From: Chthoniobacterales bacterium
GTDB taxonomy: Bacteria; Verrucomicrobiota; Verrucomicrobiia; Chthoniobacterales; JACTMZ01
NCBI GenBank assembly: GCA_041736875.1
Contig: JBGSSV010000111.1
Coordinates: 31 to 64,030 of the forward strand
DNA: 64,000 bases
Reading direction: 5' to 3'
Part shown: positions 3,044 to 26,666 of the stretch, piece by piece
Layout of the letters: every line of letters begins with the position of its first letter
How positions within the stretch are numbered: the first letter of the stretch is position 1
Notes under the pieces: model-generated
What the model was told of the DNA's origin: nothing
Database searches by the model: none
Seen by the model: only the letters and a program-made list of their open reading frames with translations
Made by a program: the position numbers and the translations under genes

Positions 3044-6235
<3,192 letters not shown>

Positions 6236-6274
6236 TCCACCCCTGCGAGTCATGTTCCTCCGCGGGGCTGCCCC

Positions 6275-6427: not shown

Positions 6428-6699
6428 GTCACAATCCCGACTACGCCGAGCTTATGCGCGATGACCGAGTCGGCCTCGTGCTCAGCGGCCACACCCACGG
6501 GGGTCAGTGCGTTTTCCCCCTTCTAGGCGCGCCGGTTATTCCCTCGCGTTACGGCCAGAAATACGCGTCGGGTCTTTGCCGCGCGCCCGTGGCCAAAGTC
6601 TTCGTCACCACCGGCGTTGGCCACAGTGCCCCGCCCGTCCGCATCAACTGCCCGGCCGAAGTCGCCCTGCTCACACTGACCCGATGGGCCGAGGGCTGA
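6409..6699 (+). pseudogene. C-terminal remnant of a calcineurin-like metallophosphoesterase
   Basis: The frame of ORF 6454..6699, extended upstream, reads DSVILLSHNPDYAELMRDDRVGLVLSGHTHGGQCVFP...VFVTTGVGHSAPPVRINCPAEVALLTL. The GHTHGG motif is present, but the N-terminal metal-binding motifs and a plausible start are absent. Confidence 0.6.
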
Positions 6700-6786
6700 G
6701 GCCTCGCGGTGTTGATCAGATTTCCTCGTGGTTCCACCGGAGCGCCCATTAACCTTCCGGCGGCTCCTCCTCACGCCCGCCAACTG

Positions 6787-8052: not shown

Positions 8053-8158
8053 ACCGGCTCGCGTCCCGCCCGCCGGCCTGCCTGTATTGACTGTTTCTCC
8101 GCAAATGGGGTGGTGTTGGTTGCGGGCTTGCGGTCGGGTGGACTGATGAGGATGCTTC

Positions 8159-9172
8159 GTGTTTATGGGTGCGGTTGAAGCAGTGGTCAGGCCGGAATGC
8201 GCGGATGCGGATTACGCGCAGTTTGCCGAGCGCAACCTGGACAAGATGTCGTGGTTGTATCCGCTGGTGAACAACAAGCTGGGTGCGCTGCTGTGTTTGC
8301 AGTTGCGGCACGAGCATTTGTTTTTCATGAAGGACGGACGCGTGGTGGACGAGATTGGCTACGGGGAGAACGGGAAGCGCTTTCATGAGCGTGACATGGG
8401 CAAGGTGATGCAGACGCCCGAGGAGATCACGGCGCAGGGCTACTGGTTTGTCGCGCCGCGTTACAATGCATTGGCGGCTTACGAGGCCCTCGGGCAGGTG
8501 CAGGATGGAGCTTACTACTCGGTCTTCAGCAACCAATGCCAGGACTGGGCCAACCGGGTGCGGGCCAAGTCAGCAGAGATTGAAAAGGCGGAGAACCTCG
8601 TGCCGCCGCCGGGTCGGGAGGCGTATGCTCCGCTCTACAAAGAGGTGGCGCCCACCGTTCCGGCGGCGTGGTATTTCGGCATGATCGCGGTGGTCGTCGG
8701 CGTGCTCGGGTTGGGCGCGCCCATGGCGACCGGATACCATTACCTCCGCTTCGTGGCCCTGCTGCTCGTGGCCATCGGGATCTCGGACATCGTCTACGCC
8801 TTCTCCTCGCACGCTTGGCGCACGTTTCTTTCCACCGTGTTCTTCGGTCTGCTTTCCATCGCCGGCGGCGCGCTTATCTGGACCAACGATCACTTTCTCC
8901 TCGTTCGGAGCAATGGCGTGCTCGCGCTGGTTCTCGCCGCGGTCGGCCTGGCGCGCATTGGCGTGGCTATTTCCAGTCGGCCGTTCATCGCGTGGCTCGG
9001 CACCTTCCTGACCGGGATTTTCCTCCTCCTTACGGCCTGGGTGGCGTGGGGGCATAAGGACGGCTCCGCCGCGGGGTGGTTGCTCGGCGCGTCACTCTCG
9101 TTCTCCTTCATCGCCGCCGGCGCTTCCACCATCTGGCTCAACTGGCGATTGAGCAGGGAGCGTGGAGCGTAG
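8159..9172 (+). CDS. membrane protein: N-terminal His/Cys (LRAT/NlpC-like?) domain fused to HdeD/DUF308-like helices
   Basis: GTG 8159 or ATG 8165. The soluble N-terminus contains LRHEHLFFMKDGRVVDEIGYG and YYSVFSNQCQDWANRV. About 6 hydrophobic helices follow (GISDIVYAF, LSIAGGALIW). The function call is tentative. Confidence 0.5.
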   Translation: MFMGAVEAVVRPECADADYAQFAERNLDKMSWLYPLVNNKLGALLCLQLRHEHLFFMKDGRVVDEIGYGENGKRFHERDMGKVMQTPEEITAQGYWFVAPRYNALAAYEALGQVQDGAYYSVFSNQCQDWANRVRAKSAEIEKAENLVPPPGREAYAPLYKEVAPTVPAAWYFGMIAVVVGVLGLGAPMATGYHYLRFVALLLVAIGISDIVYAFSSHAWRTFLSTVFFGLLSIAGGALIWTNDHFLLVRSNGVLALVLAAVGLARIGVAISSRPFIAWLGTFLTGIFLLLTAWVAWGHKDGSAAGWLLGASLSFSFIAAGASTIWLNWRLSRERGA

Positions 9173-13134: not shown

Positions 13135-13529
13135 AACCTTCCGCCCTGCGTCTACCCGTCCTCGCTCTTGCGGTGGTCGGTCTCGTCCTTGTGCTGGCCG
13201 GTTGCGACACGCCGGCCAAAACCGCACAGACTCTGGCCAATGACATCGTGGCTTACTCCGCCGACCCGCAACCCGAGACGGCGGTGCGGATCGAAGCTGA
13301 TTTCGCCCGCCTCGACGCACAGATCGAAAAGCTGCGCGCCGGGGGCCAGGAGGTGGAAGCTGGCGCATGGCAGCAGGAGCGCGACGCTTTGAAGCTTCGC
13401 TTTGCCGCCGCGCGCATGGCTGGCAACCTGCAGGGGGTGAAGAAGGCGGCGGAGGATCTGGGCAAGTCCTTCCGCCAGGCCGGTGAAGCTTTCGGCGAAG
13501 CCTTCAAGGACAAGCCCCCCGCCGAGTAA
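13131..13529 (+). CDS. lipoprotein (helical, unknown function)
   Basis: GTG at 13131 overlaps the pgi stop (GTGA). [25 protein letters not shown] carries a lipobox. The remainder is Ala/Glu/Lys-rich. Confidence 0.55.
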
Positions 13530-13617
13530 GGCGCGGTCCGGCGCAGGGCCGTTCATTTTCGTCTCCGTATTTGTCGCGGACTGCTTCATGCTCTTGACCC
13601 CCCAGTTTGGGGTTTTC

Positions 13618-14682
13618 ATGATTCTCGACCCCTCCAGCGTGACAGCCGAACAGCGGACCCAGGCTGCCCAACTTCTGGCCCAGTGGCCCATCTTCCGTGG
13701 TCTGCCCGGCGCGCTTTGTGAGGAGATCGTCGCCGAGTCGGAGTTTCGCTTCCACCGTGGCGGTGAGCATATCCATCCCGAGCATGACGTTGTCGGCATG
13801 GTTGTCTCCGGTCACCTCTTCCTTTGCCGCAGCGGCCTCGACGCCATGTCCGGCATTCTGCTCAACATCGGCCCCGGGCTCTCGCTCGGATTGTCCTGGG
13901 TTCTCTCCGGGTCCGACCACCTGCCCAATGTCACGCTCCACGCGGGCACCGATGCCCTGCTGCTGCGCATCTCGGGCGCCAGTCTGCGGACGCGATTTTT
14001 CGAGGATCTGGGCTTTTGGCGCCGGGCCCTTGTTCAGGTGACCATGGGTTTCGAGCGGGCCATCGATCATCTCTCCCTGCGGACGGCGGAAGTGCTCACG
14101 GCCGGCGAGGACACCGTGTCGGTCCTCATGCGATCGCTCGACCTGCGCGATCAGGAGACGGAGGCGCACTGCCGGAGGGTGCAAACCCTGAGCCTTCTCA
14201 TCGCCCGCACGATGGGAGTGGCGAAGGCCACGCAGCGGGAGATCGAGCTGGGCGCACTCGTCCATGACATCGGCAAGATCGGCGTGCCCGACAGCATTCT
14301 GCGCAAAGCGGGCAACCTCTCCCCCGACGACTGGGCCGTCATGCGCACCCACCCGGCCCTCGGATTGCAAATTGTCGGTGGTATCGCCTACCTCGAGCAG
14401 GCGACGGCCATCGTCGGGTATCATCATGAACGCTGGGATGGCTGCGGCTATCCGCAGGGTGTAGCTGGCGAGCATATTCCGCTGGCGGCCCGCATCTTCG
14501 CCGTGGCCGATGTCTACGATGCGCTGACCACGGCGCGAATTTACAAAAAAGCGTGGACGGCGGAGGAAGCCCGGGACGAAATTCTGCGCGAGTCGGGTCA
14601 ACGCTTTGATCCCAACGTCTGCGCCGCCTTCACATCCTGCTTTGATGAGGTCCGGCAGATTCCGGCCATTCCGCGCTTTTGA
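13618..14682 (+). CDS. HD-GYP domain phosphodiesterase with N-terminal cNMP-binding-like barrel
   Basis: Reads HDIGKIGVPDSIL...HHERWDGCGYPQG. The N-terminus reads WPIFRGLPGALCEEIVAESEFRFHRGGEHI. ATG 13618 (M46 of ORF 13483..14682). Confidence 0.85.
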   Translation: MILDPSSVTAEQRTQAAQLLAQWPIFRGLPGALCEEIVAESEFRFHRGGEHIHPEHDVVGMVVSGHLFLCRSGLDAMSGILLNIGPGLSLGLSWVLSGSDHLPNVTLHAGTDALLLRISGASLRTRFFEDLGFWRRALVQVTMGFERAIDHLSLRTAEVLTAGEDTVSVLMRSLDLRDQETEAHCRRVQTLSLLIARTMGVAKATQREIELGALVHDIGKIGVPDSILRKAGNLSPDDWAVMRTHPALGLQIVGGIAYLEQATAIVGYHHERWDGCGYPQGVAGEHIPLAARIFAVADVYDALTTARIYKKAWTAEEARDEILRESGQRFDPNVCAAFTSCFDEVRQIPAIPRF

Positions 14683-14699
14683 GGAGCGCTCGCGTCGGG

Positions 14700-15599
14700 A
14701 TGAGAGCAACCCGCGCACTTGCCTGGTTTCTGGCCGGCGTGCTCCTGGCGCTGTGGGTCGGTCAATCCCGGGCGGCAGACCATCAGCACGGTCCCACCGG
14801 CACGTATACCGAATGGCATTGGCCGGAGCCGCCGCCTGACGGGGGCTACGAAGGTTTCGAGCATCGGCTGGTCATTGAGCGTGAGCCGCCGGGGGACGTC
14901 GGATATTTCTGGTCGCATCAAGTCGAATTGCAGGATGGCGACACGGCGTATTTCGGCCTGCAGACCCTCGGGAGACGGCCCGATGGCAGCGAGGGGAAGG
15001 TGGCGATCTTCTCGATTTGGAAAGCTCTCGCTGCCCGCGGCCCCGGCGTCGCCCAGCCGTTCTCCGGGGAAGGGGAGGGATATCAAACCTTGATCCCCTA
15101 CGATTGGAAGCCGGGGCAGGGGTATCGCCTGCGCATGTTTTGGAGCGGGGAGAACCGCCGCGGAACGGAATGGTCGGCCACCGTCTGCGATGAAACCACG
15201 GGCGAAGTCTCGCTCATCGGGACCATCACGGTGCCGAAGAAATGGGGAGGCTTGGGGGCGTGGTCGGTCATGTGGTCCGAGCGCTACACCGGGCCCGAAG
15301 TTCGGACTTGTGATGATGTCGGCTATTCCCGCGTGACCTTCACGGCACCCACGGCGGATGGCGGCAGCGTCAGGCCCGACCGCCACCATAGTTACGTCAC
15401 CGCCCCCGCGAATTGCCCTAGCTCCCGGGTGATCGAGCAGGGCGGCCGCTTCCGTCAGGAGATGGGTATCCCCGAGCAGACGTGCAGAAGGCCGCGGTCG
15501 GCGGTTCAGGGGGTTGGTGTGATCGTGGCAAATGGAGAGCGGCCGAAACCGGACTCATCGGGTTTGGTCGTCGGAATGGTCTGGGTGAACCAAGTGTGA
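14700..15599 (+). CDS. secreted protein, DUF3472-like
   Basis: Signal peptide MRATRALAWFLAGVLLALWVGQSRA. Contains YFGLQTLGRRPDG...VAIFSIWKA...FSGEGEGYQ...YDWKPGQGYRLRMFW. The last ~31 codons overlap the convergent gene, so the true 3' end is questionable. Confidence 0.5.
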   Translation: MRATRALAWFLAGVLLALWVGQSRAADHQHGPTGTYTEWHWPEPPPDGGYEGFEHRLVIEREPPGDVGYFWSHQVELQDGDTAYFGLQTLGRRPDGSEGKVAIFSIWKALAARGPGVAQPFSGEGEGYQTLIPYDWKPGQGYRLRMFWSGENRRGTEWSATVCDETTGEVSLIGTITVPKKWGGLGAWSVMWSERYTGPEVRTCDDVGYSRVTFTAPTADGGSVRPDRHHSYVTAPANCPSSRVIEQGGRFRQEMGIPEQTCRRPRSAVQGVGVIVANGERPKPDSSGLVVGMVWVNQV

Positions 15600-17437
15600 G
15601 CGTAGGAATGGGCGTCCAAGAGACTGCCCCCCGGCGGCGGCGTGATGTATTTGAGATGGATGCCCTCCGGTGGAGATTCCTCAGTCAGTCCAACGACAAA
15701 AGGCGAGGTGATGTAAAAATCCATGCTGCTGCAAGCCTTCGGCACGTCCACGGTCAGTTCCTGATCCGGCGCCGGCGTGTCCAAAATGGTCACGTGCATG
15801 TTGGCCGGCGCCATATTCATCATTTTCAAACGCAACGCCGCACGAGACACCACAAATCCTCCCGCGCTATGTCCGATCAAGTGCAGGGGCTTGGCCGGAT
15901 CGATCTGCTTATCCCAGATCATCTGAGCGATCCGGAAGGCCAAGAGATCCCCGACCTCCCTGGCCTGACTCGGAATGCCCGCCAGATCCGCGAGAAACTT
16001 TCCCACCTCATTCCCCGGATCAATCCCGTGCATCCTTCCGGGCATCGCCGCGGCGGACCAGTCCACCAGGCCGATGTTCGGCGCCGCAGAGCCCAGTCGT
16101 TCCAGCAGAACCTTGCGCATCTCCCGCATCCAGGGACTGTCAAGGCCCTCCCCGGTCTGGATCGCACCGTCATGCAAACCGTGGGCGATGATGATCGTCC
16201 CATTCGGAACGAGGTCCGGGTCTGGTATCCAGGGACCGCCTGTTTCATCCACCAGCGCCCCTTGCGCCTGCAGCTTGCTCCGTGCCTCGGGATCACTCGG
16301 GGCACTGAAAGAAAGCCAACCCAGCGTCCCGGCCGAAGCTGCGATGACAAAAGGCAGGCGCCCCAGCAACACCCGCCCCAAAAAGATCAAACCCACCCCG
16401 CCTAGCGCCAACGCCTCGCTCGTCACATTTGGACCTCCACCCACGGCCCGATGCTTGTGGCTCGCCTTGGCCTTGTCTTCGCGCACCTGATAGAATTGCT
16501 CGGCCGTTTCAGCTTCAAAATACCAGTCCACCACCTCACCCAAGAGTTGGTCCTCCGTCGCAGACACGATCGGCAGCGCTTCCTCGGGCGTCACCTTGGC
16601 CAGCAACTCGCTCCGCGCGTTTTCCAGCATCGAGATCTGCCTCGCGAAGCGCGCCGTGCGTCGGTTGAGCTCCTGCATATAGCGCAGCGATTGAAGCAGC
16701 ACGATGCCCAGCGGCAGCACAACTCCCGCGACACCGAGGAAAGCCTCGATCCGATAATCCCCCAGCATCCGCATCCATTGCGGCGCCCGACTGCTCATGG
16801 TCAGGATCACCCCGGCTGCCCCGAGGGCCAGCATCACATCCATCAGCACCGTGGCCCATTTCGTGAAATGCTTCCGGCTCTCTTCCGCGCTCTGCTTCGC
16901 CTTTCGGTAATAGGCCAACTGATCATCCAACCGATTCTTGATCCAAGTTTCCCTCCACTGCGGCCAGGCTTGTTCGTGGGCTTCATCGTGCGTTTCAATG
17001 ATGGGCTTCAGGTCAGGGATCGCCGCCAACACCCGGCGCGCGGGCAGCACGGGAAAGATCGCCGCCGTCATCTGACTTCGCGCCACCTCGGCGACCAAAC
17101 GCGCCCGTGCCCAGGTCCGCTGCATCCCCCGCCAGCGCATCCACCACAAAGCCCCGATCAAGCACAGCACGGCCGCCAGCGTCCCAAGGGCCGCCGCCGC
17201 AGGCGGCAAGCCCAGAGATCGCCGAATGAGCCAAAGGGTGGGCATCATCACCGCCAGCGCTTGAATCAGAGTCATCCAGCGCGACCATGAGCGCGCCATC
17301 GGTGCCGCCCTGAGGGCCAGCCCATCCATACGTTGCTGGATCACATCAAGGGAATCCCCCGCCGTGACCCCGGCGGCTGATTTCAGATCGGCCAGCCAAC
17401 CTGGCGCCGACGTTTCGGGGGTGGCTTTAGCTTCCAT
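15506..17437 (-). CDS. SLATT-like (DUF4231-type) transmembrane module fused to a lipase-type alpha/beta hydrolase
   Basis: Reads RLDDQLAYYRKAKQSAEESRKHFTKWATVLMDVMLALGAAGVIL...IEAFLGVAGVVLPLGIVLLQSLRYMQELNRRTARFARQISMLE: a helix, two TM helices, then a helix, as in SLATT/DUF4231. The C-terminus reads IIIAHGLHDG...LHLIGHSAGGFV (GxSxG elbow). Confidence 0.6.
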   Translation of the reverse strand: MEAKATPETSAPGWLADLKSAAGVTAGDSLDVIQQRMDGLALRAAPMARSWSRWMTLIQALAVMMPTLWLIRRSLGLPPAAAALGTLAAVLCLIGALWWMRWRGMQRTWARARLVAEVARSQMTAAIFPVLPARRVLAAIPDLKPIIETHDEAHEQAWPQWRETWIKNRLDDQLAYYRKAKQSAEESRKHFTKWATVLMDVMLALGAAGVILTMSSRAPQWMRMLGDYRIEAFLGVAGVVLPLGIVLLQSLRYMQELNRRTARFARQISMLENARSELLAKVTPEEALPIVSATEDQLLGEVVDWYFEAETAEQFYQVREDKAKASHKHRAVGGGPNVTSEALALGGVGLIFLGRVLLGRLPFVIAASAGTLGWLSFSAPSDPEARSKLQAQGALVDETGGPWIPDPDLVPNGTIIIAHGLHDGAIQTGEGLDSPWMREMRKVLLERLGSAAPNIGLVDWSAAAMPGRMHGIDPGNEVGKFLADLAGIPSQAREVGDLLAFRIAQMIWDKQIDPAKPLHLIGHSAGGFVVSRAALRLKMMNMAPANMHVTILDTPAPDQELTVDVPKACSSMDFYITSPFVVGLTEESPPEGIHLKYITPPPGGSLLDAHSYAHTWFTQTIPTTKPDESGFGRSPFATITPTP

Positions 17438-17650
17438 GATCGAATGAGATTGAGTGCGAGGCGCTGAGATTGACGCTGACCACTAGGCTGTCCGTCAGCA
17501 ACCGGCAACAGCCAAACGTCGTGCATTCAGGAACCCCCGTTGGTCACGGGCCACGGGGATCACTCACTTGAAGGGTGCCGGCACAAATGGCCGCCTTTGC
17601 CCCTCGTCCGCGACTTTGCGGTGCCGCGGGTTTCTGTCTTGGCCTCGGGA

Positions 17651-17773
17651 CTAGCAGCCCTCCGGCTCGTTGGCGTAGCTTTGCTGATACCCGCCGCCAG
17701 TGGTCTCGCAACCGGTGAGGCAGCAGATGGAAAGGATACCGACAACGACGAGGATGCTTTTGATGATGGTCAT
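17651..17773 (-). CDS. 40-aa micro-lipoprotein
   Basis: MTIIKSILVVVGILSICCLTGC|ETTGGGYQQSYANEPEGC is a signal peptide plus LTGC lipobox. ATG is M82 of ORF 17651..18016. It is short, so it remains hypothetical. Confidence 0.35.
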   Translation of the reverse strand: MTIIKSILVVVGILSICCLTGCETTGGGYQQSYANEPEGC

Positions 17774-17891
17774 GGCGTCGAGACCAATAGCCGCGGTAAC
17801 CGGTCTTTGACTAGCCAAATAGGTTCCAATTTTTTCTGCGCTCCGCCGGGACCCTGCGGTGGAGAGAACTCGGCTCGGGGTAACACAGAGG

Positions 17892-19577
17892 TCAGGCCAG
17901 GAAGTCGCCCACATGCAGGACCACGGAGCGGTCGTAGTCTTTGGTTGGCTCGTCGAGGAGGTCGTAGGCGACGAGGTTCGGGTGCTGTTTGGCGGCGTCG
18001 TTCCGCTGGGGGGCAAAGGTCCAATCGGTCATCCAATAGTAGGCCGCCCACCGTTTGTGTTCCATGCGCGAGAGACGCTCGACTTGCACGGGGCTGAGGC
18101 TGTCCCACTGGGCCTTCGTGATCGTCCCCGGATCCCACCCGGCGGCGCGAACTTTGAAGGGAATGTGATCCGCTTGGGAGCGGCTGGCCCCTTTTTGCTC
18201 CTCGCTCAAGTCCTCCCACGGGCGGAATGTGGCTTTGCCCTCGAGGTTCCGGGCGAGAGCTTCATTCCCGGCGGCGCGGGCCTCGGCGATTTGCGCATGG
18301 GTCTCGCGGATCCATTTTTCGTGAATCGTTCGCGCCGTCCGGTCGAGCGACTCGCCGATGACCGCTTCGTAGCCGCAGACATCTCCCGGCTGCGGGAGAA
18401 AACCGATGCAGTCCTTGAGCCGGCGATGGCGGGCGACCATCGAGCGAAGCGGTGAGTCGGACGGGGCAGTGATGAGGATCCGCAAGTTTGAGCGATCCGA
18501 TGTCTGCTCGAGGAGTTCTAGCGTGCGGGAGTAACCGCTGTTTCCTTCAGCCAGAGCAGGGAAGATGTTGAAACGGCCCGGGGTGGAAGCCAGAAGATCC
18601 GTCACTTGGCGGGAGAAGTGCTCCTCGTCCACCAGGTCCACCGCGTCGAGGTCCATGCACTGGGTGATGCCGGGGAACTGTCTCATGAGCATGGCCAAAT
18701 CGCGCGAAGCACTGGGGCCGACGAGGTGGAGGTGGACTCGCCGATCATCGGTGAAATGCCCGAGCAAGGCGTATTCAAAAGCCAGGGCCCGCCCGAGACT
18801 GCAGAGACCGGGCAGCACAACATGGACTTCGCCTTCGTCGGACTCGGGGGCAAAGTCGCGGATGGTTTGCCGCGCGATGTTGCGCGCCTCGCTGAAAACC
18901 CTTACCGGGCCTCCGCTGGTCGCCGGGGCGTCCTGCGCCCGGTGCCGCCAATACAAATCGCACAGCGAAGCCCTGTTGCCGTGGGCGTGCACCGAGGGCA
19001 CTCCGAGTTCCACGGCGGCCATGCTGATGATCAAGTTGTGCTCGTCGTCCGAGGTGGTCACAGCCACCTGCGCGGCTTTGGCGGCGCCGGCTTGGGCCAG
19101 CACACTCGCTTTCGTGGCGTCGCCGCAGACGACCAGAAAACCTTCGGCCTCGAGAACTTCGGCCCGGTCGGGGTCGCTTTCGATCAGCACAACCTGCCGC
19201 CCGCGTTCTTCCAAGTCCTTGGCAAGCACGGTTCCCTTGCGGCCAGCCCCGCAGATTACGGTGTGCCCGGTCAGGCGGCGGGCGCGAAAGTGGTTCCACT
19301 GACGTTGGAACAAGGCCACGCCCACGCGGAAAATGGCACCGAGCATGGTGAGCGGGGCCAACCATCTCGCCACCTCCAAGGTCCACGGCAGAGGGGCTTC
19401 AGCCGTGGTATTCCATGGAAAATAGTTCCAATAGAAGAGCTGGACCGCCCGATAGGCTGCGACCGGAAGTCCTCCCGCGTCGTTGAAGGATAAAAAGCCC
19501 CACGTGCCGAGCACGAGGGAGACCACGGCGGAAACGAGGAGGATGGCTCCGAAGTGGCTGCGAATCCTCCACCACAT
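17892..19577 (-). CDS. 2-TM protein with TrkA-N/RCK NAD-binding domain and two C-terminal RyR-type repeats
   Basis: N-terminal helices are present but there is no K+ selectivity filter (AAYRAVQLFYWNY...). The Rossmann region reads VICGAGRKGTVLAKDLEERGRQVVLIESD. RyR-like repeats: IHEKWIRE...FRPWEDLSEEQKGASRSQADHI and MEHKRWAAYYWMTDWTFAPQRNDAAKQHPNLVAYDLLDEPTKDYDRSVV. Confidence 0.65.
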   Translation of the reverse strand: MWWRIRSHFGAILLVSAVVSLVLGTWGFLSFNDAGGLPVAAYRAVQLFYWNYFPWNTTAEAPLPWTLEVARWLAPLTMLGAIFRVGVALFQRQWNHFRARRLTGHTVICGAGRKGTVLAKDLEERGRQVVLIESDPDRAEVLEAEGFLVVCGDATKASVLAQAGAAKAAQVAVTTSDDEHNLIISMAAVELGVPSVHAHGNRASLCDLYWRHRAQDAPATSGGPVRVFSEARNIARQTIRDFAPESDEGEVHVVLPGLCSLGRALAFEYALLGHFTDDRRVHLHLVGPSASRDLAMLMRQFPGITQCMDLDAVDLVDEEHFSRQVTDLLASTPGRFNIFPALAEGNSGYSRTLELLEQTSDRSNLRILITAPSDSPLRSMVARHRRLKDCIGFLPQPGDVCGYEAVIGESLDRTARTIHEKWIRETHAQIAEARAAGNEALARNLEGKATFRPWEDLSEEQKGASRSQADHIPFKVRAAGWDPGTITKAQWDSLSPVQVERLSRMEHKRWAAYYWMTDWTFAPQRNDAAKQHPNLVAYDLLDEPTKDYDRSVVLHVGDFLA

Positions 19578-19582
19578 GCCGG

Positions 19583-22333
19583 TTACTCCGACCTTTTGAA
19601 GAGGTCGGCCGTTTCCGCCGCCTCCTCCGCGACACGTTTGGCGGCCGCGGCAAAGCCGGGGTCAGCCGGATCCACGACGTCCTCCGTCTCATCCTCGGTG
19701 CGGATCCATCCGACCAATTGATCGTTCATGAAATTGAAAATATTCGTCACCTTACCGGTCTTCTTCTCCGTGGCCTGGCCCTCGCGCACCTGGAAAACCG
19801 AACGGAGGCTTCCCTTGGGGGTCCAATAATAAAAGGTGAATGTGCCGTCGGCCTCGCCCGTGGAGTCCACCAGCATGACGCGCATCAGGCTTTTCCCATC
19901 GAACCACCCGAGAGCATAATGTTCGCGGGAGCCGCCGTGTTCGGGAAGCTCCCGCCGGGCCTCCTGCCAGGCGCCGTCATCGGACTTGGCCTTCCAATCC
20001 TCACGCAGCGTCGCAAAGCTCTCCGCTTCCAAAACAACTTCCGCCAGCTTGGGCAGGAGGGCTTCGATGCTCGCGCGTTTGGCATCGTCCTCGGGCATGG
20101 CTTCCGCGGCAATCTCCGCCGCGGTGCGGGCATAAGCCACAGCCTCCGCCGCGCGGTTGTCGGCCCACAGATTGAGGGCTAGGGCTTGGTTGGCCGCCGC
20201 CAGCTCCGCCTTCGCCCCGGGTTGCTCGGTTTCCAGCAGGGTGATGTTCCGGCGCTGGAGCGCCTCGGCCTCCTTTCGGTCATCGAGGGCCCCATAAATG
20301 CCGGCCAGCAGGCCGCGGGCTTCGATCGTTTGAAGGTCACCCGCGCCGAGTTTGGCCTCCCGGATCTTGAGGCAGCGGTCGGCCAGGCCCCGGGCCGTTT
20401 CGTTGTCGTCGGCGAGGAGAAGCCGACTGGCCTCGATGAAGAGATTCACCGCATAGCCGGTATCATCCGCTCCCACCGCCTTCCCCTGTTCTTCCAAACG
20501 TCTAAGCACAAGCTTCTTGGCTCCCTCGGTATCGCCTCTCGCCTCCAGCAGTTCGCCGAGTCTTTCGAAGCTGTCGAGCGTGTCAGGCTGGGCCGCGCCG
20601 ATGGTGCGGATGCGGGTCTCGAGGACTTTCCGGGTGAGGATTTCGGCCTCGTCCAGATTCTCCGGCGACTTACTCCGGGTCAGCAGTCCGGCCAGGATCG
20701 TGGCCTGGGCCAAGGTGGGCGGCGCATCCGGGCCGACCGCGCGCTCCGAGGAGGCGAACGCCCGGCGCGCCAGAGCGATCGCCCCCGGATAGTCGTCCTG
20801 ATCCTCCCGCACGAAGGCCAGCATGATCACCGGATTCAAAGTCTCCTCGTGATCCGGTCCGAGCGATTTTTCGCGGGCGGCCAACACCTTGCGGTAAACT
20901 TCCTCCGCCTGGGGGAATTTTTTCTGGGAGTTGAGCGCATAAGCCAGATCCAGCATGGCGGACAGCGTCTCCGGGGCCTCCGGGCCGGATTTTTTTTCGT
21001 TGGCCTCCACCACGCCGCGGAAAAGTTTGAGCGATTCCTCTTGTTCGGCTTCCTCACCACTTATGAGGCTGCGGGCCAGCGCGAGCGTTGCCTCCAAGGT
21101 GGCCGGATCATCCGGTCCGAGTTCGCTCTCCTGCACTTCGAGGACGGAACGGTTCAGCTCGCGGCCCTCCTCGGGGGGAACAACCTTCGCGAGACTGGTC
21201 ATGAGGGCGAGCGTGGCCGGGTTCTTCGGGCCAAGCGCGGCATTGCCTTTGGCCCAATCCACGGCCTCGGAGAGTATTCTCCTGGGTTCCGTGCTCATCA
21301 CATCGCGGTCATACATGGCCATGGCCAGCGCGTTGGTGGCGGCGGCCCAAGCGGCCGGATCCTCCGTGCGGTCGAGCAGGGTGAGGCGCTCGGCTTGGGC
21401 GGTGATGGCCTCGTTGACCAGACCCGCAGCCAGTTGAGCCTCGGCCAAACGCTGGAGGGCGTCGGCGAGGTTGCGCTTCCCGCCGGCCCCTGTGCTGGCC
21501 CGCGCCGCAGCCACGGCCTGCTCGGCTTGGACGATGGCCTCCCGCACGGTGTTGCGGACTTCTTCGACGGATTGGTTGCTGGCCTGCGCCACATTTTGCT
21601 CCGCCTGCAGGGCGATTTGCTGCATGTCGCCTGCTCCGGCCTTGCGCAAGCGGGCCTGCTCGGCGAGCAGTTGTTCAATCAAGGCTCCCTGACGCGCGAG
21701 TTGATCGTTGGTCGCGGCAATGACCTTGGCTTGCTCGCCCTGGCGGCCGAGCAGGAAAATTCCGCCGCCGATGGCAATAACCGCCGCGGCCACGGCGACG
21801 ATGAGCGTGAGGCGCCGACGCCCGCGTTCCTTGGCCAGTTCCTCGCGCAGGTTCTCGACCGAGAGCTGGAGCTCGCGCGTGCGGGTCGAAAGTTCCTCGG
21901 GTGTGGCAAATTCGTAGAAAAGCTCGTCGCGTTGCAGGAGGCGGGCGCGGTGGTCGAGTTGGAGTTGCTGCTTGTCCTCCGGCTCGGGATCGTGCTTGTC
22001 GAAAGGGAAATCCTTGCCGCAAAGAAAGACATAGCACGGGAGCTTCAACTCCATCGCGATCTCGTATTCCATCTGCGTGAAACTCCGGCGGTCCGGCCCC
22101 GGGATCACCGGCTGAGGCTCGGCCCCGTAATAGAAGCCCGCGAGATGCACGACGGCGTCGCACGTCAGGATTTTCGTCCGCAGCATGTCGCGCACGGATT
22201 TGTAGTCGGGCGGGAAATCGTCCTGCACGATCGGCAGGCACTCCATCCGCCTGAGCCCCTCGGAAACCAGCCCCCGGGCGGTGCGAAGGTCGCGACTCGT
22301 GGCGCTGACGAAAATGCGTGGGACGGGTTGCAT
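19583..22333 (-). CDS. DUF4062 (TIR/N-deoxyribosyltransferase-like) - TM - coiled coil - TPR protein with unknown C-terminal domain
   Basis: Reads MQPVPRIFVSATSRDLRTARGLVSEGLRRMECLPIVQDDF...CDAVVHLAGFYYGAEP...SFTQMEYEIAMELKLPCYVFLC, which matches the DUF4062 pattern. TM helix is LTLIVAVAAAVIAIGGGIFLLG. There are many TPR_12-like units (LGPDHEETL, LGPDDPATL, SGPEAPETL, VGPDAPPTL). ATG 22333; the ORF-track start at 22369 is TTG. Confidence 0.65.
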   Translation of the reverse strand: MQPVPRIFVSATSRDLRTARGLVSEGLRRMECLPIVQDDFPPDYKSVRDMLRTKILTCDAVVHLAGFYYGAEPQPVIPGPDRRSFTQMEYEIAMELKLPCYVFLCGKDFPFDKHDPEPEDKQQLQLDHRARLLQRDELFYEFATPEELSTRTRELQLSVENLREELAKERGRRRLTLIVAVAAAVIAIGGGIFLLGRQGEQAKVIAATNDQLARQGALIEQLLAEQARLRKAGAGDMQQIALQAEQNVAQASNQSVEEVRNTVREAIVQAEQAVAAARASTGAGGKRNLADALQRLAEAQLAAGLVNEAITAQAERLTLLDRTEDPAAWAAATNALAMAMYDRDVMSTEPRRILSEAVDWAKGNAALGPKNPATLALMTSLAKVVPPEEGRELNRSVLEVQESELGPDDPATLEATLALARSLISGEEAEQEESLKLFRGVVEANEKKSGPEAPETLSAMLDLAYALNSQKKFPQAEEVYRKVLAAREKSLGPDHEETLNPVIMLAFVREDQDDYPGAIALARRAFASSERAVGPDAPPTLAQATILAGLLTRSKSPENLDEAEILTRKVLETRIRTIGAAQPDTLDSFERLGELLEARGDTEGAKKLVLRRLEEQGKAVGADDTGYAVNLFIEASRLLLADDNETARGLADRCLKIREAKLGAGDLQTIEARGLLAGIYGALDDRKEAEALQRRNITLLETEQPGAKAELAAANQALALNLWADNRAAEAVAYARTAAEIAAEAMPEDDAKRASIEALLPKLAEVVLEAESFATLREDWKAKSDDGAWQEARRELPEHGGSREHYALGWFDGKSLMRVMLVDSTGEADGTFTFYYWTPKGSLRSVFQVREGQATEKKTGKVTNIFNFMNDQLVGWIRTEDETEDVVDPADPGFAAAAKRVAEEAAETADLFKRSE

Positions 22334-22374
22334 GGGCGGAAATCCTAACGGAGCCCGGCTGGCTGGCAAGCTGG

Positions 22375-23298
22375 TTAGCGGGTCCCTCTGGGTGCCGGGG
22401 ACGGGGCTGGAGCGCTCTCCGGCTTTCCGACCAGCATCCGGCCGACAAACGTCCCGCCGAAGCCCTCCATCTTCGTGCGCACGTCGGTCATGGTCAGGGT
22501 TGTTTCATCGAGCAGGCCGTTAACTTTTTTCAGACTGGTATCGAGTTTGAGATTCACGTTGGTCACGGTTTTGGTCAGCTCGTCGGTGAGACCTTGGAGC
22601 CGGTCCAGGCTGACGTTGAGCGAGGTGAGGGCCTCGTCGATTTTGCCGTCCTCGCCGACTTGGAGTTTCAGGCTGGTGGTCACGCCTTCGACATTTTGCA
22701 GGGAAGCGGCGGCGGATGGAACAGCCTCTGCGAGTTCCTGCATGACCGACTTGGTGCGGCCTTTTTGCGGTTCGGTGAATTGACGGATCGTGGCGTCGAT
22801 CTGGTTTCCGAGCTTCACGTATTGCTCCATGATCGCGTTCATGTCGTTCTTGGGCTGCTCCTTCTGCAGCACGAGGGTGGGGGGCTGGCCGGCCTTGGGC
22901 TTGACCGCGGTGATGGCGTCCGGGGCGGATGAAAGGTCGAGGGTGATCGAACTCGGGGCGAGGGCCGACTGGACCACGCCCGCTTTGACGATTCCGATCG
23001 GGGCGAAGCGCCACTGGGCGAACGTGTCTTTAACGCCGGCGACGAGATGGAACTGCGCCTGGCCATCGGGCCCGAGCGAAGGCGTGACCTTGCGCACATT
23101 TCCGATCACGGCCCCGGCGCAACGGAGCTCCGAGCGGGGACCGAGACCCAGTAGGTCGTTCGAAGTAAAATGAATCTCCGAGGACTGACTCCAGACTCCC
23201 AGGCTGTCTTTGGTGATTTGAATGCCGATCCATGCACCCGCGATGGTCAACACGCAGAGCAGGACGACGATGGTTTGGATTTCGAGTTTCTTTTTCAA
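22375..23298 (-). CDS. mlaD: MlaD/MCE-family periplasmic component
   Basis: N-terminal TM helix IQTIVVLLCVLTIAGAWIGI. MCE-like segment SEIHFTSNDLLGLGPRSELRCAGAVIGNVRKVTPS...AQFHLVAGVKD. Long helical tail. The TTG start overlaps the mlaF stop (TTGA). Confidence 0.7.
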   Translation of the reverse strand: MKKKLEIQTIVVLLCVLTIAGAWIGIQITKDSLGVWSQSSEIHFTSNDLLGLGPRSELRCAGAVIGNVRKVTPSLGPDGQAQFHLVAGVKDTFAQWRFAPIGIVKAGVVQSALAPSSITLDLSSAPDAITAVKPKAGQPPTLVLQKEQPKNDMNAIMEQYVKLGNQIDATIRQFTEPQKGRTKSVMQELAEAVPSAAASLQNVEGVTTSLKLQVGEDGKIDEALTSLNVSLDRLQGLTDELTKTVTNVNLKLDTSLKKVNGLLDETTLTMTDVRTKMEGFGGTFVGRMLVGKPESAPAPSPAPRGTR

Positions 23299-23987
23299 TG
23301 GTTTCGGGTGGTGAAGGCTTGAAGGTGCTCATTTTGGGCCGCGTCCTCGCTGCGCACCAGCGTGTGTTCCGTGCCGTGGAGAAGGAGAATATGCGTGGCG
23401 ATGCGCCGGGCGAAGTCCAGATCCTGCGTGGCCACAACAATCCCGGTCAGGACCCCGGTTCGGACGAGGGTGACCAGAAGTTCCTCCACCAGAGCCTTCT
23501 TCGCGGGCGCCAAGGCGGCCACGGGCTCGTCGGCGATCAGGAGCCGGGTCCGGCCGGAGAGGGCCCGGGCCAGGGAGACGCAACGCTTGTCACCTTCGCT
23601 CAACTGATGGACCTCCTCGTTTTCGAGGTGTCCGCAGCCGACCAAGCGCATGCGCAGCCGGACCTTTTCCTGCAACTCTCCATCCAGGTCCAACCCGTGG
23701 ACGAGGAAAGGCAGGGCGATGTTCTCGAAGACGGTCATGTTGCGGATCAAGCCGGGGTGCTGAAAGACGACGCCCACCTCGGCCAGGGCGAGGTTCAGCT
23801 CGCGTCCGGCCACGTGCACCGAGCCCGGTGGGACCCGCAGGTGTCCGCTCAGGTGCGCGAGCAGGAGACTTTTGCCGGAGCCGTTGTCGCCGAGCACGGC
23901 CAGAATTTCGCCGGGCTGGACTTGAAAGGCCAGAGGCTCCCCGCCGAGGGAGAGACCTTGGACCGAGAGCGGCGGTGCCGTCTTCAT
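23295..23987 (-). CDS. mlaF: ABC transporter ATP-binding protein, MlaF-like with atypical motifs
   Basis: Walker A GDNGSGKS and Walker B LLIADEP are present. The signature is LSEGD (not LSGGQ), the D-loop is AALA, and the H-loop position reads VVATQD (Gln, not His). The ATG overlaps the mlaE stop (ATGA). Confidence 0.8.
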   Translation of the reverse strand: MKTAPPLSVQGLSLGGEPLAFQVQPGEILAVLGDNGSGKSLLLAHLSGHLRVPPGSVHVAGRELNLALAEVGVVFQHPGLIRNMTVFENIALPFLVHGLDLDGELQEKVRLRMRLVGCGHLENEEVHQLSEGDKRCVSLARALSGRTRLLIADEPVAALAPAKKALVEELLVTLVRTGVLTGIVVATQDLDFARRIATHILLLHGTEHTLVRSEDAAQNEHLQAFTTRNH

Positions 23988-24769
23988 TCAAGACTGAAGG
24001 CTGCGGTGAGCAGGCTGAGCAGGAGGTTGACGATCGTGGAGGAAAACACCGCGGTGGCCACCGCTGACGTGGTGATCTTGCCGACAAAGCCGCTCTCCGC
24101 CTTGGCCCCCATGAAGCCGAAAAAACCGGCGATGATCGACATGGCCGTCGCGGTGATGGCCAGTTTGGTCACGGTGAGCAACAAGGCTCCCGAGGTCACG
24201 CTCGAGGCGTAGGCCGAAATGAATTCCGTGAAACTCGTCCCGACCGCGATCCATGAAACCAGCCAAGCCCCGAGGCAGGCGGCATACACGCCGATGACCG
24301 CCAGCGAGGGGGCTGTAATGATGAGCGCGATGGCCCGCGGGGCGAAGATCATGTCCGCCGGATTCAAGCCCACTGCCTCCAGCGCATCGACTTCCTGCGA
24401 CACCCTCATGCTCGCGATGTCCGAGGTCAGCCCGACCACACCCTTCAGGACCACGAGATTGGCGATGGCGAAGGGGATGACAAATTGGATGAAGGCGCCG
24501 CCGAGATGCGGCAGCACCAAAGTTTGAAAGGCCTCCGGGCTGCCGGCATTGCCGATCACGCCATAGGCCGCCGCGAGGCCGTAGATGAAGGTCGTCAGGG
24601 CCGACGCTCCCGCCGTGCCTCCGAGGAAACCCAGCACCTGCCGCACCGTTTCGCGATCCACGACGGTGGTGCGCCCCGTCAGGACCCGCGGAATCACGCG
24701 CAAGCCGACGATCAGGATGGCTCCGAGCAGGCTCGTGATCGAATAGCGGGTTGTCCGCTCAAACGTCAT
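23984..24769 (-). CDS. mlaE: MlaE/YrbE-family ABC permease
   Basis: About 261 aa from ATG 24769 (M90 of ORF 23984..25036; alternative M82 at 24793). Polytopic, with LTSDIASMRVSQEVDALEAVGLNPADMIFAPRAIALII. Confidence 0.75.
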   Translation of the reverse strand: MTFERTTRYSITSLLGAILIVGLRVIPRVLTGRTTVVDRETVRQVLGFLGGTAGASALTTFIYGLAAAYGVIGNAGSPEAFQTLVLPHLGGAFIQFVIPFAIANLVVLKGVVGLTSDIASMRVSQEVDALEAVGLNPADMIFAPRAIALIITAPSLAVIGVYAACLGAWLVSWIAVGTSFTEFISAYASSVTSGALLLTVTKLAITATAMSIIAGFFGFMGAKAESGFVGKITTSAVATAVFSSTIVNLLLSLLTAAFSLE

Positions 24770-24806
24770 TGCTGTTGTCGCTTTGGCAGCCATACATTGG
24801 CGGCAG
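24770..24806. promoter_or_regulatory. very short divergent intergenic region between the mla-led operon and the DUF4071/SLOG operon
   Basis: mlaE ATG is at 24769. Rightward start candidates are TTG 24783, ATG 24807 and ATG 24831. No promoter boxes were recognised. The regulatory role is inferred only from divergent geometry. Confidence 0.3.
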
Positions 24807-26666
24807 ATGACGCACGGAACCGCCGCCACTATGCAAGTCAAATCGGATCGAGCCTGCGACAGCATTGACGCCGTCGCCGTGGCCGTGGACGCCCTGCGGG
24901 GGCGCCTGCAGAGCGGGGAAAAAATACCGCCGCGCGAACTGCGCGGAATCTGGGGTGAGCGCCTCCGCCCGTTCTGGCGGCTGAAGATCGACATGTATCG
25001 CGCCTTGTCCCGCCGGTTGCTCGAGCAAGGCGACAACTACCTGGCGAGCGAAGTAGCCGACGAGGGCGGGCAATTCTTCGGTGACGATGTGGCGTTGATT
25101 TTGACCCGCGCCCTGGCGACGGCGCGGAGCGGGGCGCCGCAGAGTGCACAGGCCTTTCTGCGGCAGAAGGAGGAGTTGCTGGACGAGGCCGACGAGGCCA
25201 AAAGTTTGCTGGCCCGCACCTTCAAGGATCTTTGGAAATCCTCGCGCGAGGAGCATTACCTGCAGGAGTCGTTCGACCTCTATCACCTCGACTACACGAC
25301 GACCAGGGGCGACCGGACCTTTCCGGGTGTGAACGCTGCCAGCATGGCGCTGTTTCTCGGTCGCCGCGACCTTGCCGGGCGCATCGCCGGGGAGGTGCTG
25401 GCCCTCTTGCGCGCCAAAGCCGACACCGCGAACTACTGGGATGAAGTCACCATCGCGGAGTGCCTGCTCGTCGCCGGCGAGATCGAGGCGGCCCGCTCGG
25501 CTTATGCCGGAGCGGCCAGCCGCGATCACGTCGCCCACGCCCACCTCGCGACCACCCGCGGCCAGGCCCGGCTCCTGCTCAGGCAACTTGAACGCGGCGA
25601 ATCCGAGTTCGATCCGTGTTTCCCGCTGCCCGGCGTCATTGCCTTCACGGGACACCGCATCGATGGGCCAGACCGGGCTGCGCCCCGGTTGCCCCACGAT
25701 ATGACCCCGGCCATCAAAGAGCGCATTCGCGAGGCCATCGCGAAATCCGGAGCCGGCTTCGGTTACGCGGCCGCGGCCAATGGCTCGGACATTCTCTTCC
25801 TCGAATGCATGCAGGAGGCCGGCCTCGAGACCTACATCCACCTTCCCCTGCCCGAGGAGGACTTCATCCGTGAGAGCGTTCTGAATCCCGCATTTCCCGA
25901 GTGGTTGGAGCGCTTTCGAAAAGTCACCGCCCACGCCACCGAATACACTTGCGCGACGCACGCCGGCCACGAGGCGCTTGATTTCGACTACGGCAACCGC
26001 CTCATGCTCGGCGCGGCGAGCCAGCGCGCACGCCAACTGGGCTCCGAACTGCATTTTCTCACCGTTTGGGATGGTGTCCCCGCAGCGCTCGGGAGCGGGG
26101 GCACGGCGGATTACGTCCGCGTGGCCCGAGAATTCGGCTGCGCGGTCGAGATCATCGACATCCCCGGGCCGCGGCCCGGGCAGCCGGAGGAGCAAACCGC
26201 GCCCGCGGCGGGCCAGGGCCAACTCCTCTCCATCCTCACGATTTTCCTCCGGCCCGACGAGAAGTCCGAGGCCAGGCTGGCCGACTTGGCCAGTGACGCC
26301 ATTCACAGCGAGGTCTCCGACACCCGTGTGCGCATCTTCTTCCGAAACCAAGCAGCCGCAGCGATGGCTGCTTGCGGGATCCGCCGACATCTGGCCGACG
26401 TCCTCACGGGCGCGTTGGGATTGCACGCCGGACCCGCCCGTCTCTCTACGCACCCCCTGACGGGCAAACAGATCGTGCGCGGCGCCCATGTTACCGTCTC
26501 CGATGAGCTGGCCGCCCTCACTCCTGCCGGTCTCATCTACGCCTCATCCGCCTTCGCCGCGCTGCTCGGTTTGGAGAGTTCCGGCGATGCCCGGAGCGAG
26601 TTCCTTGGTTATCGCGCGTTGACCAGCGGCGGTCGGCGGGAGCCTGTCTTTCAAATCCTCGGCTGA
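24807..26666 (+). CDS. DUF4071 (TRAF-binding-domain-like) - SLOG/YpsA-like Rossmann - degenerate class III cyclase-homology protein
   Basis: DUF4071 pattern: LLARTFKDLWKSS...FPGVNAASMALFLG...NYWDEVTIAECLLVAGEIEAA. SLOG/YpsA-like region: VIAFTGHRIDGP...IKERIREAIAKSGAGFGYAAAANGSDILFLECMQEAGLETYIHLPLP. CHD-like tail: ILTIFLRPDEKSE...RIFFRNQAAAAMA...LGLHAGPARL, which lacks both metal-binding Asp. The start is uncertain (24783, 24807 or 24831). Confidence 0.6.
   Translation: MTHGTAATMQVKSDRACDSIDAVAVAVDALRGRLQSGEKIPPRELRGIWGERLRPFWRLKIDMYRALSRRLLEQGDNYLASEVADEGGQFFGDDVALILTRALATARSGAPQSAQAFLRQKEELLDEADEAKSLLARTFKDLWKSSREEHYLQESFDLYHLDYTTTRGDRTFPGVNAASMALFLGRRDLAGRIAGEVLALLRAKADTANYWDEVTIAECLLVAGEIEAARSAYAGAASRDHVAHAHLATTRGQARLLLRQLERGESEFDPCFPLPGVIAFTGHRIDGPDRAAPRLPHDMTPAIKERIREAIAKSGAGFGYAAAANGSDILFLECMQEAGLETYIHLPLPEEDFIRESVLNPAFPEWLERFRKVTAHATEYTCATHAGHEALDFDYGNRLMLGAASQRARQLGSELHFLTVWDGVPAALGSGGTADYVRVAREFGCAVEIIDIPGPRPGQPEEQTAPAAGQGQLLSILTIFLRPDEKSEARLADLASDAIHSEVSDTRVRIFFRNQAAAAMAACGIRRHLADVLTGALGLHAGPARLSTHPLTGKQIVRGAHVTVSDELAALTPAGLIYASSAFAALLGLESSGDARSEFLGYRALTSGGRREPVFQILG

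Follow-up and report, generated by a model that had tools for sequence, protein, structure and literature searches.

A SLATT-type membrane protein with a phospholipase A1-like domain as a candidate effector of Thoeris-like signalling loci in Verrucomicrobiota

What would a single polypeptide do that joins a membrane module of the SLATT type to a lipase, and which system might it serve? SLATT proteins and phospholipases are known separately as end-points of bacterial nucleotide immunity, and a gene that joins the two lies on a 64,000-nt stretch of contig JBGSSV010000111.1 from a Chthoniobacterales bacterium (the whole stretch is hereafter called the window). A preliminary description had proposed that the product of this gene, referred to below as the effector, is a membrane-targeting component of nucleotide-activated immunity, a proposal that is supported by SLATT_1 matches at the family level and by TIR- and SLOG-containing neighbourhoods, from which its effector function is predicted. 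The best reading of the protein is that it varies the SLATT effectors known from TIR signalling systems by carrying a lipase, and we consider it fairly probable that it acts as the membrane-destroying component of a Thoeris-like (TIR-based) nucleotide-signalling conflict system.

The effector is encoded by a single open reading frame (ORF) of 643 amino acids with an ATG start, which occupies exactly positions 15506-17437 on the minus strand, a correction to the preliminary description. Since its G+C content at third codon positions (0.74) fits the GC-rich window (63-67%, about 64%), we regard the ORF as a real gene. All strings quoted in the preliminary description occur in the minus-strand translation: RLDDQLAYYRKAK begins at residue 169, RWRGMQRTWARARLVAEVARSQM corresponds to residues 101-123, IIIAHGLHDG to residues 414-423, LHLIGHSAGGFV to residues 518-529 and HVTILDTP to residues 548-555. 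Scans for Rfam families, promoters and terminators around the gene returned nothing over background. The coordinates of the protein's segments and of the partner genes are collected in Table 1.

The SLATT-like module announced in the preliminary description coincides with SLATT_1, a member of the SLATT group that was reportedly defined by Burroughs et al. in 2015. With the window protein alone the match is sub-threshold, both for Pfam SLATT_1 (PF18181; profile positions 2-122 of 122, E 0.0074, 16.8 bits versus a cut-off of 26.3) and for NCBIfam SLATT_1 (NF033634; E 7e-4, versus a 41-bit cut-off). At the level of the family, represented by an alignment (A1) of 44 sequences that diverge down to ~32% identity, SLATT_1 is matched by 16 of the 44 homologues with a best E of 4.3e-6, and three of them carry a precomputed PF18181 hit. 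The AlphaFold2 model of the effector (mean predicted local distance difference test, pLDDT, of 78) has the SLATT_1 architecture, with helices at 160-185, 191-214, 228-255 and 261-280, and the family hydropathy profile has cores at 200-212 and 234-247 that are followed by an Arg-rich segment, while the QLAYYRKAK motif sits in the amphipathic helix of the domain. No solved SLATT structure surfaced in a Foldseek search with the effector model.

A second route to SLATT_1 is offered by the SLOG-4TM proteins, which carry a SLOG domain and a four-transmembrane (4TM) module and are encoded beside effector homologues in ~11 loci. Residues 34-306 of the effector align with the whole 4TM module of these proteins over 268 colinear columns (hhalign 98.2%, E 3e-14), and one SLOG-4TM neighbour passes the Pfam SLATT_1 threshold in its own right (E 7e-12, 45.9 bits). 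Because of this colinear match, the N-terminal unit of the effector can be assigned by sequence comparison to a conserved 4TM module, with SLATT_1 making up its second half. In the model, the first transmembrane (TM) pair consists of helices 49-75 and 79-103, it is followed by a predicted cytoplasmic helical region, and a long helix, which would form a cytoplasmic linker, reaches residue 327. The preliminary description had also taken this earlier TM pair for a possible degenerate second SLATT copy: the pair is indeed present and gives a weak match to NCBIfam SLATT_3 (E 0.03), but we detected no profile similarity between the two TM pairs of the effector (hhalign probability 0.1%), which gives no support to an internal duplication and leaves a topological analogy only.

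The strongest conservation in the family falls on an Arg/Trp-rich helix directly after TM2, in which W98, R101, W109, R113, E117 and R120 are invariant in the 44-sequence alignment. An equivalent motif, YR.LAE.LR, is carried by the SLOG-4TM proteins. This juxtamembrane helix, predicted to be cytoplasmic, is a candidate ligand or lipid-headgroup site.

The C-terminal part of the protein is an alpha/beta hydrolase, and here the esterase/lipase core recognised in the preliminary description could be placed in a particular fold family. The domain is modelled with pLDDT above 90 over most of residues 400-643, and the best Foldseek match in the PDB is hornet phospholipase A1 (PLA1; 4qnn, E 3e-6, TM-score on target 0.51), with pancreatic lipase second (1eth, E 1.9e-4). 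The motifs VDW, R.VG, LIGHS.G and LD are colinear with those of 4qnn, the sequence alignment itself being weak. The predicted catalytic triad of Ser524 (in GHSAGG), Asp553 (in ILDTP) and His610 is conserved to at least 90% at each position, as is the HG oxyanion motif at 419-420, and G522-H523-S524-A525-G526-G527 is nearly invariant in the family. Profile searches are less specific: Thioesterase or Abhydrolase profiles match 37 of the 44 members, Pfam Lipase (PF00151) is matched at E < 0.01 by seven of them (best 1.4e-4), the hits of the window protein, around GHSAGG, are confined to the generic profiles Thioesterase and Abhydrolase_6, and a search of solved structures with the whole-family profile returned just generic thioesterase/lipase nucleophile-elbow matches.

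Outside the family, the lipase domain has its nearest relatives in proteins of 700-1450 amino acids from Verrucomicrobiota (loci L051-L077), secreted or located at the surface, that also carry Laminin_G, RCC1, Ig-like and TSP3 domains, such as those at L051:7862-11653 and at L077:5114-9484, the latter in Chthoniobacter flavus Ellin428. Several of these relatives have signal peptides. Such relatives suggest that the effector recruited its lipase within the phylum, from a family of extracellular enzymes.

Between the 4TM module and the lipase lies an element that the preliminary description had overlooked, a third hydrophobic stretch at residues 338-381 that is modelled as an antiparallel hairpin of helices 338-359 and 361-381 (model confidence there 56-73). 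Its length is 44-45 amino acids in every member that spans it, the segment lengths of the membrane part as a whole being near-fixed (20 length-outlier members were tabulated), and it has a GRxP turn motif with conserved Arg354, Arg360 and Pro362 in mid-stretch. According to the model, this hairpin tethers the lipase to the membrane. The 4TM module is predicted to have both termini inside, because Arg-rich segments follow TM2 and TM4 and because relatives carry a SLOG domain, which is of cytoplasmic type, at the N-terminus. As the third stretch is modelled as a hairpin with Arg354, Arg360 and Pro362 at its centre, the lipase likely also faces the cytoplasm.

The alternative that survives best accepts the same system and the same trigger but places the lipase in the periplasm, either because 338-381 is a single span or because the C-terminus is otherwise outside, so that the protein would be a lysis-type effector whose target is either the outer membrane or the outer leaflet of the inner one. 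We consider this arrangement rather unlikely. The secreted or surface location of the nearest lipase relatives, several with signal peptides, and the typically extracellular occurrence of the pancreatic-lipase/PLA1 family would fit it, as would the limited confidence of the hairpin model, but AlphaFold2 gives two antiparallel helices, the hydrophobic stretch of ~35 residues is hairpin-like in having two Arg and a Pro at its centre (GRxxxxGRLP), and its length is fixed in all members that span it. Cys content does not differ between the family and the secreted lipase relatives and is uninformative on compartment.

If the effector belongs to a conflict system, its family might be expected to be scattered, and this is how it is distributed. 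A search of 5.8 billion proteins yielded 66 homologue clusters, the few organism-named ones all from Verrucomicrobiota; ~35 full-length representatives at 50% identity were found among 1.84 billion proteins, and 42 full-length loci were located in species-representative genomes. The hosts are Verrucomicrobiota and some Gammaproteobacteria (Shewanella, Alteromonas, Glaciecola, Pseudidiomarina, Rhodanobacteraceae). The family is rare and patchy and is absent from most Verrucomicrobiota, as expected of transferable defence genes. Searches of plasmid and phage collections by tblastn gave no match to the effector and hence no sign of known mobile carriage, and PADLOC v2 had no match for the effector, none that recognises its partners and no CBASS.

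Members of the family differ in whether they carry a sensor of their own. One of them, P0029 (1026 amino acids), begins with a full SLOG domain of 364 residues, to which the usual 4TM-hairpin-lipase body is joined (local hidden Markov model, HMM, 1.9e-8), ~12 members have a reduced SLOG-like N-terminal domain of ~125 residues (hhalign 94%, E 1e-7), and the window protein has neither. These variants, among which the SLOG-bearing ones include P0029, P0049-P0064 and L017-L024, can be ordered as a natural series that runs from sensor fusions to effectors devoid of a sensor.

The genes that surround the effector homologues point to the same kind of signalling. We searched stop-to-stop ORFs within a 10-kb radius with local HMMs in 24 lineages (defined at 70% identity) and, as controls, in 27 loci (396 kb, mostly from the same phylum) that share the lipase domain only. 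A TIR or DUF4062 gene was found in 16 of the 24 lineages, a SLOG gene in 12, a TrkA_N-RyR gene in six and any such partner in 18, as compared to none of the 27 controls in each case, counts that are to be read with the bias toward the family that arises from iterating the HMMs on the family loci themselves. The association with TIR-like, SLOG-like and RyR-domain genes is non-random. The commonest Pfam families among 61 immediate neighbours are TIR_2 (9), ThsB_TIR (5), RyR (4), TPR-S (4) and SLATT_1 (4), followed by MAP3K_TRAF_bd, TrkA_N and Guanylate_cyc (3 each), and there was no SMODS/CD-NTase either among the 25 commonest Pfam families of these neighbours or in the listed homologue contexts. 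The nucleotide-immunity setting proposed in the preliminary description holds as far as signalling genes lie nearby, but these are TIR/SLOG (Thoeris-like) genes and not those of CBASS, for which no CD-NTase operon was seen in these neighbours and contexts. Lipid-metabolism contexts, which would have spoken for a housekeeping enzyme, were not seen among the homologues, most lineages having TIR/DUF4062 or SLOG within 10 kb.

Several arrangements of these genes occur in homologues at 41-76% identity. In some loci the effector is followed by a DUF4062 gene; in others a TPR-S/SLOG/cyclase gene precedes the effector and a TIR_2-TPR gene follows it, an order (TPR-S/SLOG, effector, TIR-TPR) that recurs at 46-47% identity; and in yet others the effector stands between a SLOG-4TM gene and a TIR_2 gene. 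TIR_2 or ThsB_TIR genes adjoin the effector directly in L014, L015, L019, L030, L035 and L037-L039, the intergenic distance being -6 to 59 nt in several lineages that are distant from one another. Thus, SLATT is associated with nucleotide-signalling domains through both SLOG fusions and SLOG neighbours, and the TIR adjacency typical of Thoeris is present though not universal; in the window the TIR-like DUF4062 gene is the second one upstream, on the strand of the effector. With nSTAND1-WD40 NTPases, extra TIR genes and a 916-residue patatin protein in the vicinity (L005, which equals L019, at 3253-8055 and 15326-19903; L006 at 6925-8856; L016 at 10-2970), the effector is often inside larger conflict-system islands.

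In the window itself, the minus-strand order is MlaE, ABC ATPase, a 307-residue protein, DUF4062-TPR (928 amino acids), TrkA_N-RyR (561 amino acids), a gap of 454 nt and the effector. The preliminary description had placed DUF4062 and RyR genes upstream on the same strand and a SLOG-like gene about 7 kb away, and this agrees with what we found, the last at a distance of 7.3 kb. The DUF4062 protein matches Pfam DUF4062 (1.8e-12) and TPR_12, its DUF4062 domain matches the TIR profile (hhalign 93%, E 3e-7), and the first Glu of its QMEYEIA motif aligns with the conserved TIR Glu. It is a probable signal generator, and TIR_2/ThsB_TIR proteins replace it in other loci. Nearly all TIR/DUF4062 partners have a strong TM helix 30-60 residues past the TIR domain, a single helix preceded by RGRRR in the window protein and two in the versions of L014, L015 and L030. 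Because RGRRR precedes the helix, its predicted topology suggests that the TIR-like domain is inside and that ~720 residues of coiled coil and TPR are possibly outside, an arrangement that resembles the Toll-like-receptor style.

The gene next to the effector encodes a GsuK-like channel (Pfam TrkA_N 7e-24, RyR 2e-14) whose model (pLDDT 87) consists of a pore-like 2TM domain, a pair of RCK-type domains and two RyR repeats. Foldseek matched it to full-length GsuK (4gx0/4gx2, E 2e-8), TrkA, MthK and Repeat12 of RyR3, and by sequence its C-terminus matches Repeat12 of RyR1/RyR3 with E values of 5e-18 to 1e-11. The His/Trp/His/Asp ligand motifs of the RyR domain are retained, these residues being invariant or nearly so, while the pore has no TVGYG filter and reads LFYWNYFPW there. 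The channel adjoins effector homologues in six of the 24 lineages, tight two-gene pairs among them, and by analogy we infer that its RyR domain may sense or terminate the signal.

The SLOG-like gene of the preliminary description encodes a protein with TPR-S, SLOG-like and cyclase-like regions that probably starts at M17, since its orthologue has 611 amino acids. Homology to the TPR-S proteins of L004 and L007 extends along its length (E 1e-42 to 1e-46), its homologues directly adjoin effector homologues in other genomes, and its SLOG-like Rossmannoid region has GHR...GxD...WDG..GGT motifs. The L004 and L007 orthologues keep the class III cyclase motif FSDIVGFS and match Guanylate_cyc, and the window copy looks degenerate. 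The protein could serve as a signal relay or amplifier. Directly after it, at 26675-31120 (+), a 1481-residue protein combines Guanylate_cyc, a Ser/Thr kinase and TPR-like repeats; the kinase matches PADLOC mad6, PD-T4-6 and MkoA, which may be generic kinase similarities.

A mechanism can be proposed from these parts. A membrane-anchored TIR-like protein would sense infection or envelope damage and turn NAD+ into a cyclic-ADP-ribose-type signal, a step that would fall to the DUF4062-TM-TPR protein here and to TIR_2-TPR proteins elsewhere. There are three candidate readers of this signal: a SLOG domain, which some relatives carry on the effector itself and which the separate TPR-S/SLOG gene would supply here; the RyR Repeat12 domain at the end of the neighbouring GsuK-like channel; or the 4TM module through its cytoplasmic face with the invariant Arg/Trp-rich motif, as proposed for ThsH. 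Activated 4TM modules would then oligomerise in the inner membrane, and oligomerisation would release or position the tethered lipase for phospholipid hydrolysis, most likely of the cytoplasmic leaflet. Lipase action would make depolarisation irreversible, and the infection would abort.

A bolder version, which we put forward tentatively and regard as doubtful, would make the locus a single bacterial pathway from TIR through a cyclic-ADP-ribose-type signal to an RyR-domain ion channel, in which a membrane-anchored TIR-like enzyme, a GsuK-like cation channel gated via its RyR Repeat12 domain and the SLATT-lipase as executioner are joined in one signalling complex at the membrane. If this were true, RyR Repeat12 would be an ancestral receptor for ADP-ribose signals made by TIR enzymes, the SLATT-lipase would rank as the first effector in immunity to unite pore formation and phospholipid hydrolysis in one polypeptide, and the plant trio of TIR, lipase-like protein and pore would have a prokaryotic counterpart in the locus.

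Several observations weigh against the reading of the effector as the executioner of a Thoeris-like system. The window effector has no recognised sensor domain of its own, its own SLATT_1 score is under the Pfam threshold, and PADLOC v2 recognises neither it nor its partners; the 454-nt gap separates it from the upstream genes, and the separate SLOG-like gene lies not only 7.3 kb away but on the opposite strand, with a weak SLOG call (DprA E 0.016, YAcAr E 0.01). In about six of the 24 lineages the effector stands among housekeeping genes and is partner-free within 10 kb, several of these contigs being short, and L009, L010, L012 and L080 have only the RyR-channel gene, with no TIR nearby. The steps of the mechanism, moreover, are all inferred.

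The last of these loci motivate a second alternative, in which effector and RyR channel form a TIR-independent two-gene membrane module of toxin-like or membrane-remodelling function that would answer to a stress or metabolic cue in the form of NAD(H), ADP-ribose or a different adenine nucleotide; the TIR and SLOG genes would then share the defence island with it without being its partners. Tight effector-channel pairs free of TIR and SLOG within 8-10 kb occur in L009, L010, L012 and L080-L082 (the pair in L080 is spaced by 10 nt, with no TIR gene within 8 kb), GsuK-type RCK domains bind NAD+ and ADP (PDB titles 4gx1, 4gx2), and effector and channel are each also found alone. Set against this are the fusion of SLOG to the effector in P0029 and of reduced SLOG in ~12 members, the TIR genes that immediately adjoin the effector in several distant lineages, and the fact that the only ligands which the RyDEP study demonstrated for RyR domains of phage and the bacterial clade are TIR products (PMC13232231). 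Overall, we judge such a module to be quite improbable.

A third alternative would keep the Thoeris-like setting and deprive the lipase of catalysis. The lipase-like domain would be a non-enzymatic regulatory or ligand/partner-binding module like EDS1/PAD4/SAG101, through which plants pass TIR-derived signals on to helper NLRs that form pores, and the SLATT part alone would kill, as could be argued from the plant parallel of TIR, lipase-like protein and pore, in which the EDS1 triad is kept yet dispensable, and from SLATT or 4TM modules that suffice alone as type VII Thoeris effectors. However, conservation of the triad, the HG motif and GHSAGG to at least 90% each in a family that diverges to ~32% identity argues for selection on catalysis, and the fold is of the pancreatic-lipase type versus the class-3 lipase type of EDS1, which makes this alternative very unlikely.

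Finally, the effector could be a housekeeping enzyme, a membrane esterase or lipase that takes part in the lipid metabolism of the envelope and is functionally linked to an Mla-like ABC transporter, a reading that is largely refuted and hardly credible. The Mla-like genes at 22375-25036 do run in one direction with the DUF4062, RyR and effector genes, the first five of these genes being spaced by no more than 5 nt, but they are lineage-specific neighbours that accompany the effector in the window and in its 95%-identical relative L001 and in none of the other loci. The family, moreover, is rare, patchy and missing from most Verrucomicrobiota, the opposite of a housekeeping pattern.

The remaining neighbours can be described briefly. 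The Mla-like set on the minus strand comprises MlaE, the ABC ATPase and the 307-residue protein, which has a weak MlaD match and an N-terminal TM helix, and represents either an insertion-site coincidence or a lineage-specific addition. On the other side of the effector gene, a convergent DUF3472 gene (longest ORF 14679-15599, +) overlaps the effector 3' end by 94 nt. Its orthologue in L001 is called shorter (265 amino acids) and is overlap-free, so the overlap is probably a start-codon artefact. The DUF3472 gene is adjoined by an HD_5 (HD-GYP-type) gene at 13483-14682.

Table 1. Segments of the effector and its partner genes in the window
Feature	Coordinates	Strand	Basis
Whole gene: 643-residue 4TM(SLATT)-hairpin-lipase protein	15506..17437	-	ORF and translation, 66 homologue clusters, AlphaFold2 model
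Predicted cytoplasmic N-terminal leader, residues 1-48	17294..17437	-	Conserved W14, A41, A45, P46
First TM pair, residues 49-103, within the conserved 4TM module	17129..17293	-	Model, family hydropathy, SLOG-4TM alignment
W98-R120 motif, WWxRWRGMQRTWARARLVAEVAR	17078..17146	-	Strongest conservation in the family
SLATT_1 domain, residues 166-305: amphipathic helix, TM3, TM4, Arg-rich post-TM helix	16523..16942	-	Pfam, hhalign
Third hydrophobic helical hairpin, residues 338-381	16295..16426	-	Model, hydropathy, constant length
Pancreatic-lipase/phospholipase-A1-like alpha/beta hydrolase, residues 395-643	15509..16255	-	Model, Foldseek, triad conservation
Predicted nucleophile Ser524, codon	15866..15868	-	GHSAGG; aligns with GHSLG of PLA1 and PLRP2
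GsuK-like 2TM channel, two RCK/TrkA_N-type domains, C-terminal RyR Repeat12	17892..19577	-	Pfam, model, Foldseek
DUF4062 (TIR-like), one TM helix, coiled coil, TPR	19583..22369 (feature coordinates 19583..22333)	-	Pfam, hhalign
TPR-S, SLOG-like and degenerate cyclase-like protein	24831..26666 (ORF 24783-26666)	+	Pfam TPR-S 1.2e-10

How does the effector compare with the systems already described? The closest of them are found among the Thoeris types catalogued by Yirmiya et al. (bioRxiv 10.64898/2025.12.03.692087). In that work, type VII Thoeris consists of a TIR and a SLATT protein with canonical cyclic ADP-ribose (cADPR) as the signal, and positively charged cytoplasmic pockets between the protomers of its SLATT protein ThsH are the predicted binding site, with oligomerisation proposed to follow; type VIII has a CMP-hydrolase and TPR effector, for whose TPR domain Burroughs & Aravind 2020 is cited, an ion channel serves in type X and a HIT hydrolase in type XI, while 'SLOG and 4TM' and 'SLOG Patatin' are predicted effector types whose tested examples were negative in E. 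coli. A literature search that did not reach Burroughs et al. 2015 or Burroughs & Aravind 2020 found no published description of a SLATT-lipase fusion.

Like ThsH, the effector is a SLATT-type membrane protein beside a TIR gene, and its Arg/Trp motif parallels the charged pockets of ThsH, a comparison that rests on the shared Pfam family and the published description; unlike ThsH, which is described without an enzymatic domain, it adds a TM pair, the hairpin and a 250-residue lipase. With the 'SLOG and 4TM' type, the effector shares the whole 4TM module, with which its residues 34-306 are colinear, and P0029 has the same SLOG-4TM order. Those proteins end after SLATT_1 at a conserved D-W, whereas the effector continues into the linker, the hairpin and the lipase and, in the window lineage, has no SLOG sensor. 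Neither of the two 'SLOG and 4TM' systems assayed in E. coli conferred defence (bioRxiv 10.64898/2025.12.03.692087).

With CapV, the patatin effector of CBASS, and with 'SLOG Patatin', the effector would have in common that an immune nucleotide signal unleashes a membrane-destroying phospholipase. Such release of a phospholipase by a nucleotide signal is the established logic of CapV-type effectors. These effectors have a soluble patatin fold, whereas the effector is membrane-integral, of PLA1 type and fused to a pore-former-type module. Among lipases, it resembles the PF00151 family in the placement of its Asp 29 residues past Ser, as compared to 24 in pancreatic lipase, the sequence similarity being marginal (Pfam Lipase in seven of the 44 members); the members of PF00151 are secreted enzymes, whereas the domain of the effector is tethered to a six-helix membrane anchor and is probably cytoplasmic.

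The partner channel has its own counterpart in phage. Lopez Rivera et al. show that phage RyR-domain proteins, the RyDEPs, bind or cleave 2'/3'cADPR by means of His, Trp, His and Asp residues common to animal RyR Repeat12 (PMC13232231). The C-terminus of the partner channel likewise matches Repeat12 and keeps His/Trp/His/Asp, but RyDEPs are small soluble phage counter-defence proteins, whereas the domain here is host-encoded, fused to a GsuK-like channel and part of a TIR-like locus. The consulted sections of that article make no mention of a host-encoded RyR-domain channel in a TIR-type locus (PMC13232231).

What is new, then, is a membrane-tethered PLA1-like lipase on a SLATT effector, the sensor-less form found in the window and its pairing with a host RyR channel. 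A single chain in which a lipase is anchored beside a pore-former-type module would be a new effector design and could explain irreversible membrane damage. The series of members with a fused SLOG, with a reduced SLOG, and with none but with a SLOG or RyR partner encoded separately could serve to study how sensors and effectors split and recombine. Lastly, whether cADPR-type molecules act directly on RyR Repeat12 is a long-standing question of animal physiology that was reopened in 2026 by the phage RyDEP work (PMC13232231), and the RyR-domain channel beside a TIR-like gene offers a bacterial route to the same question.

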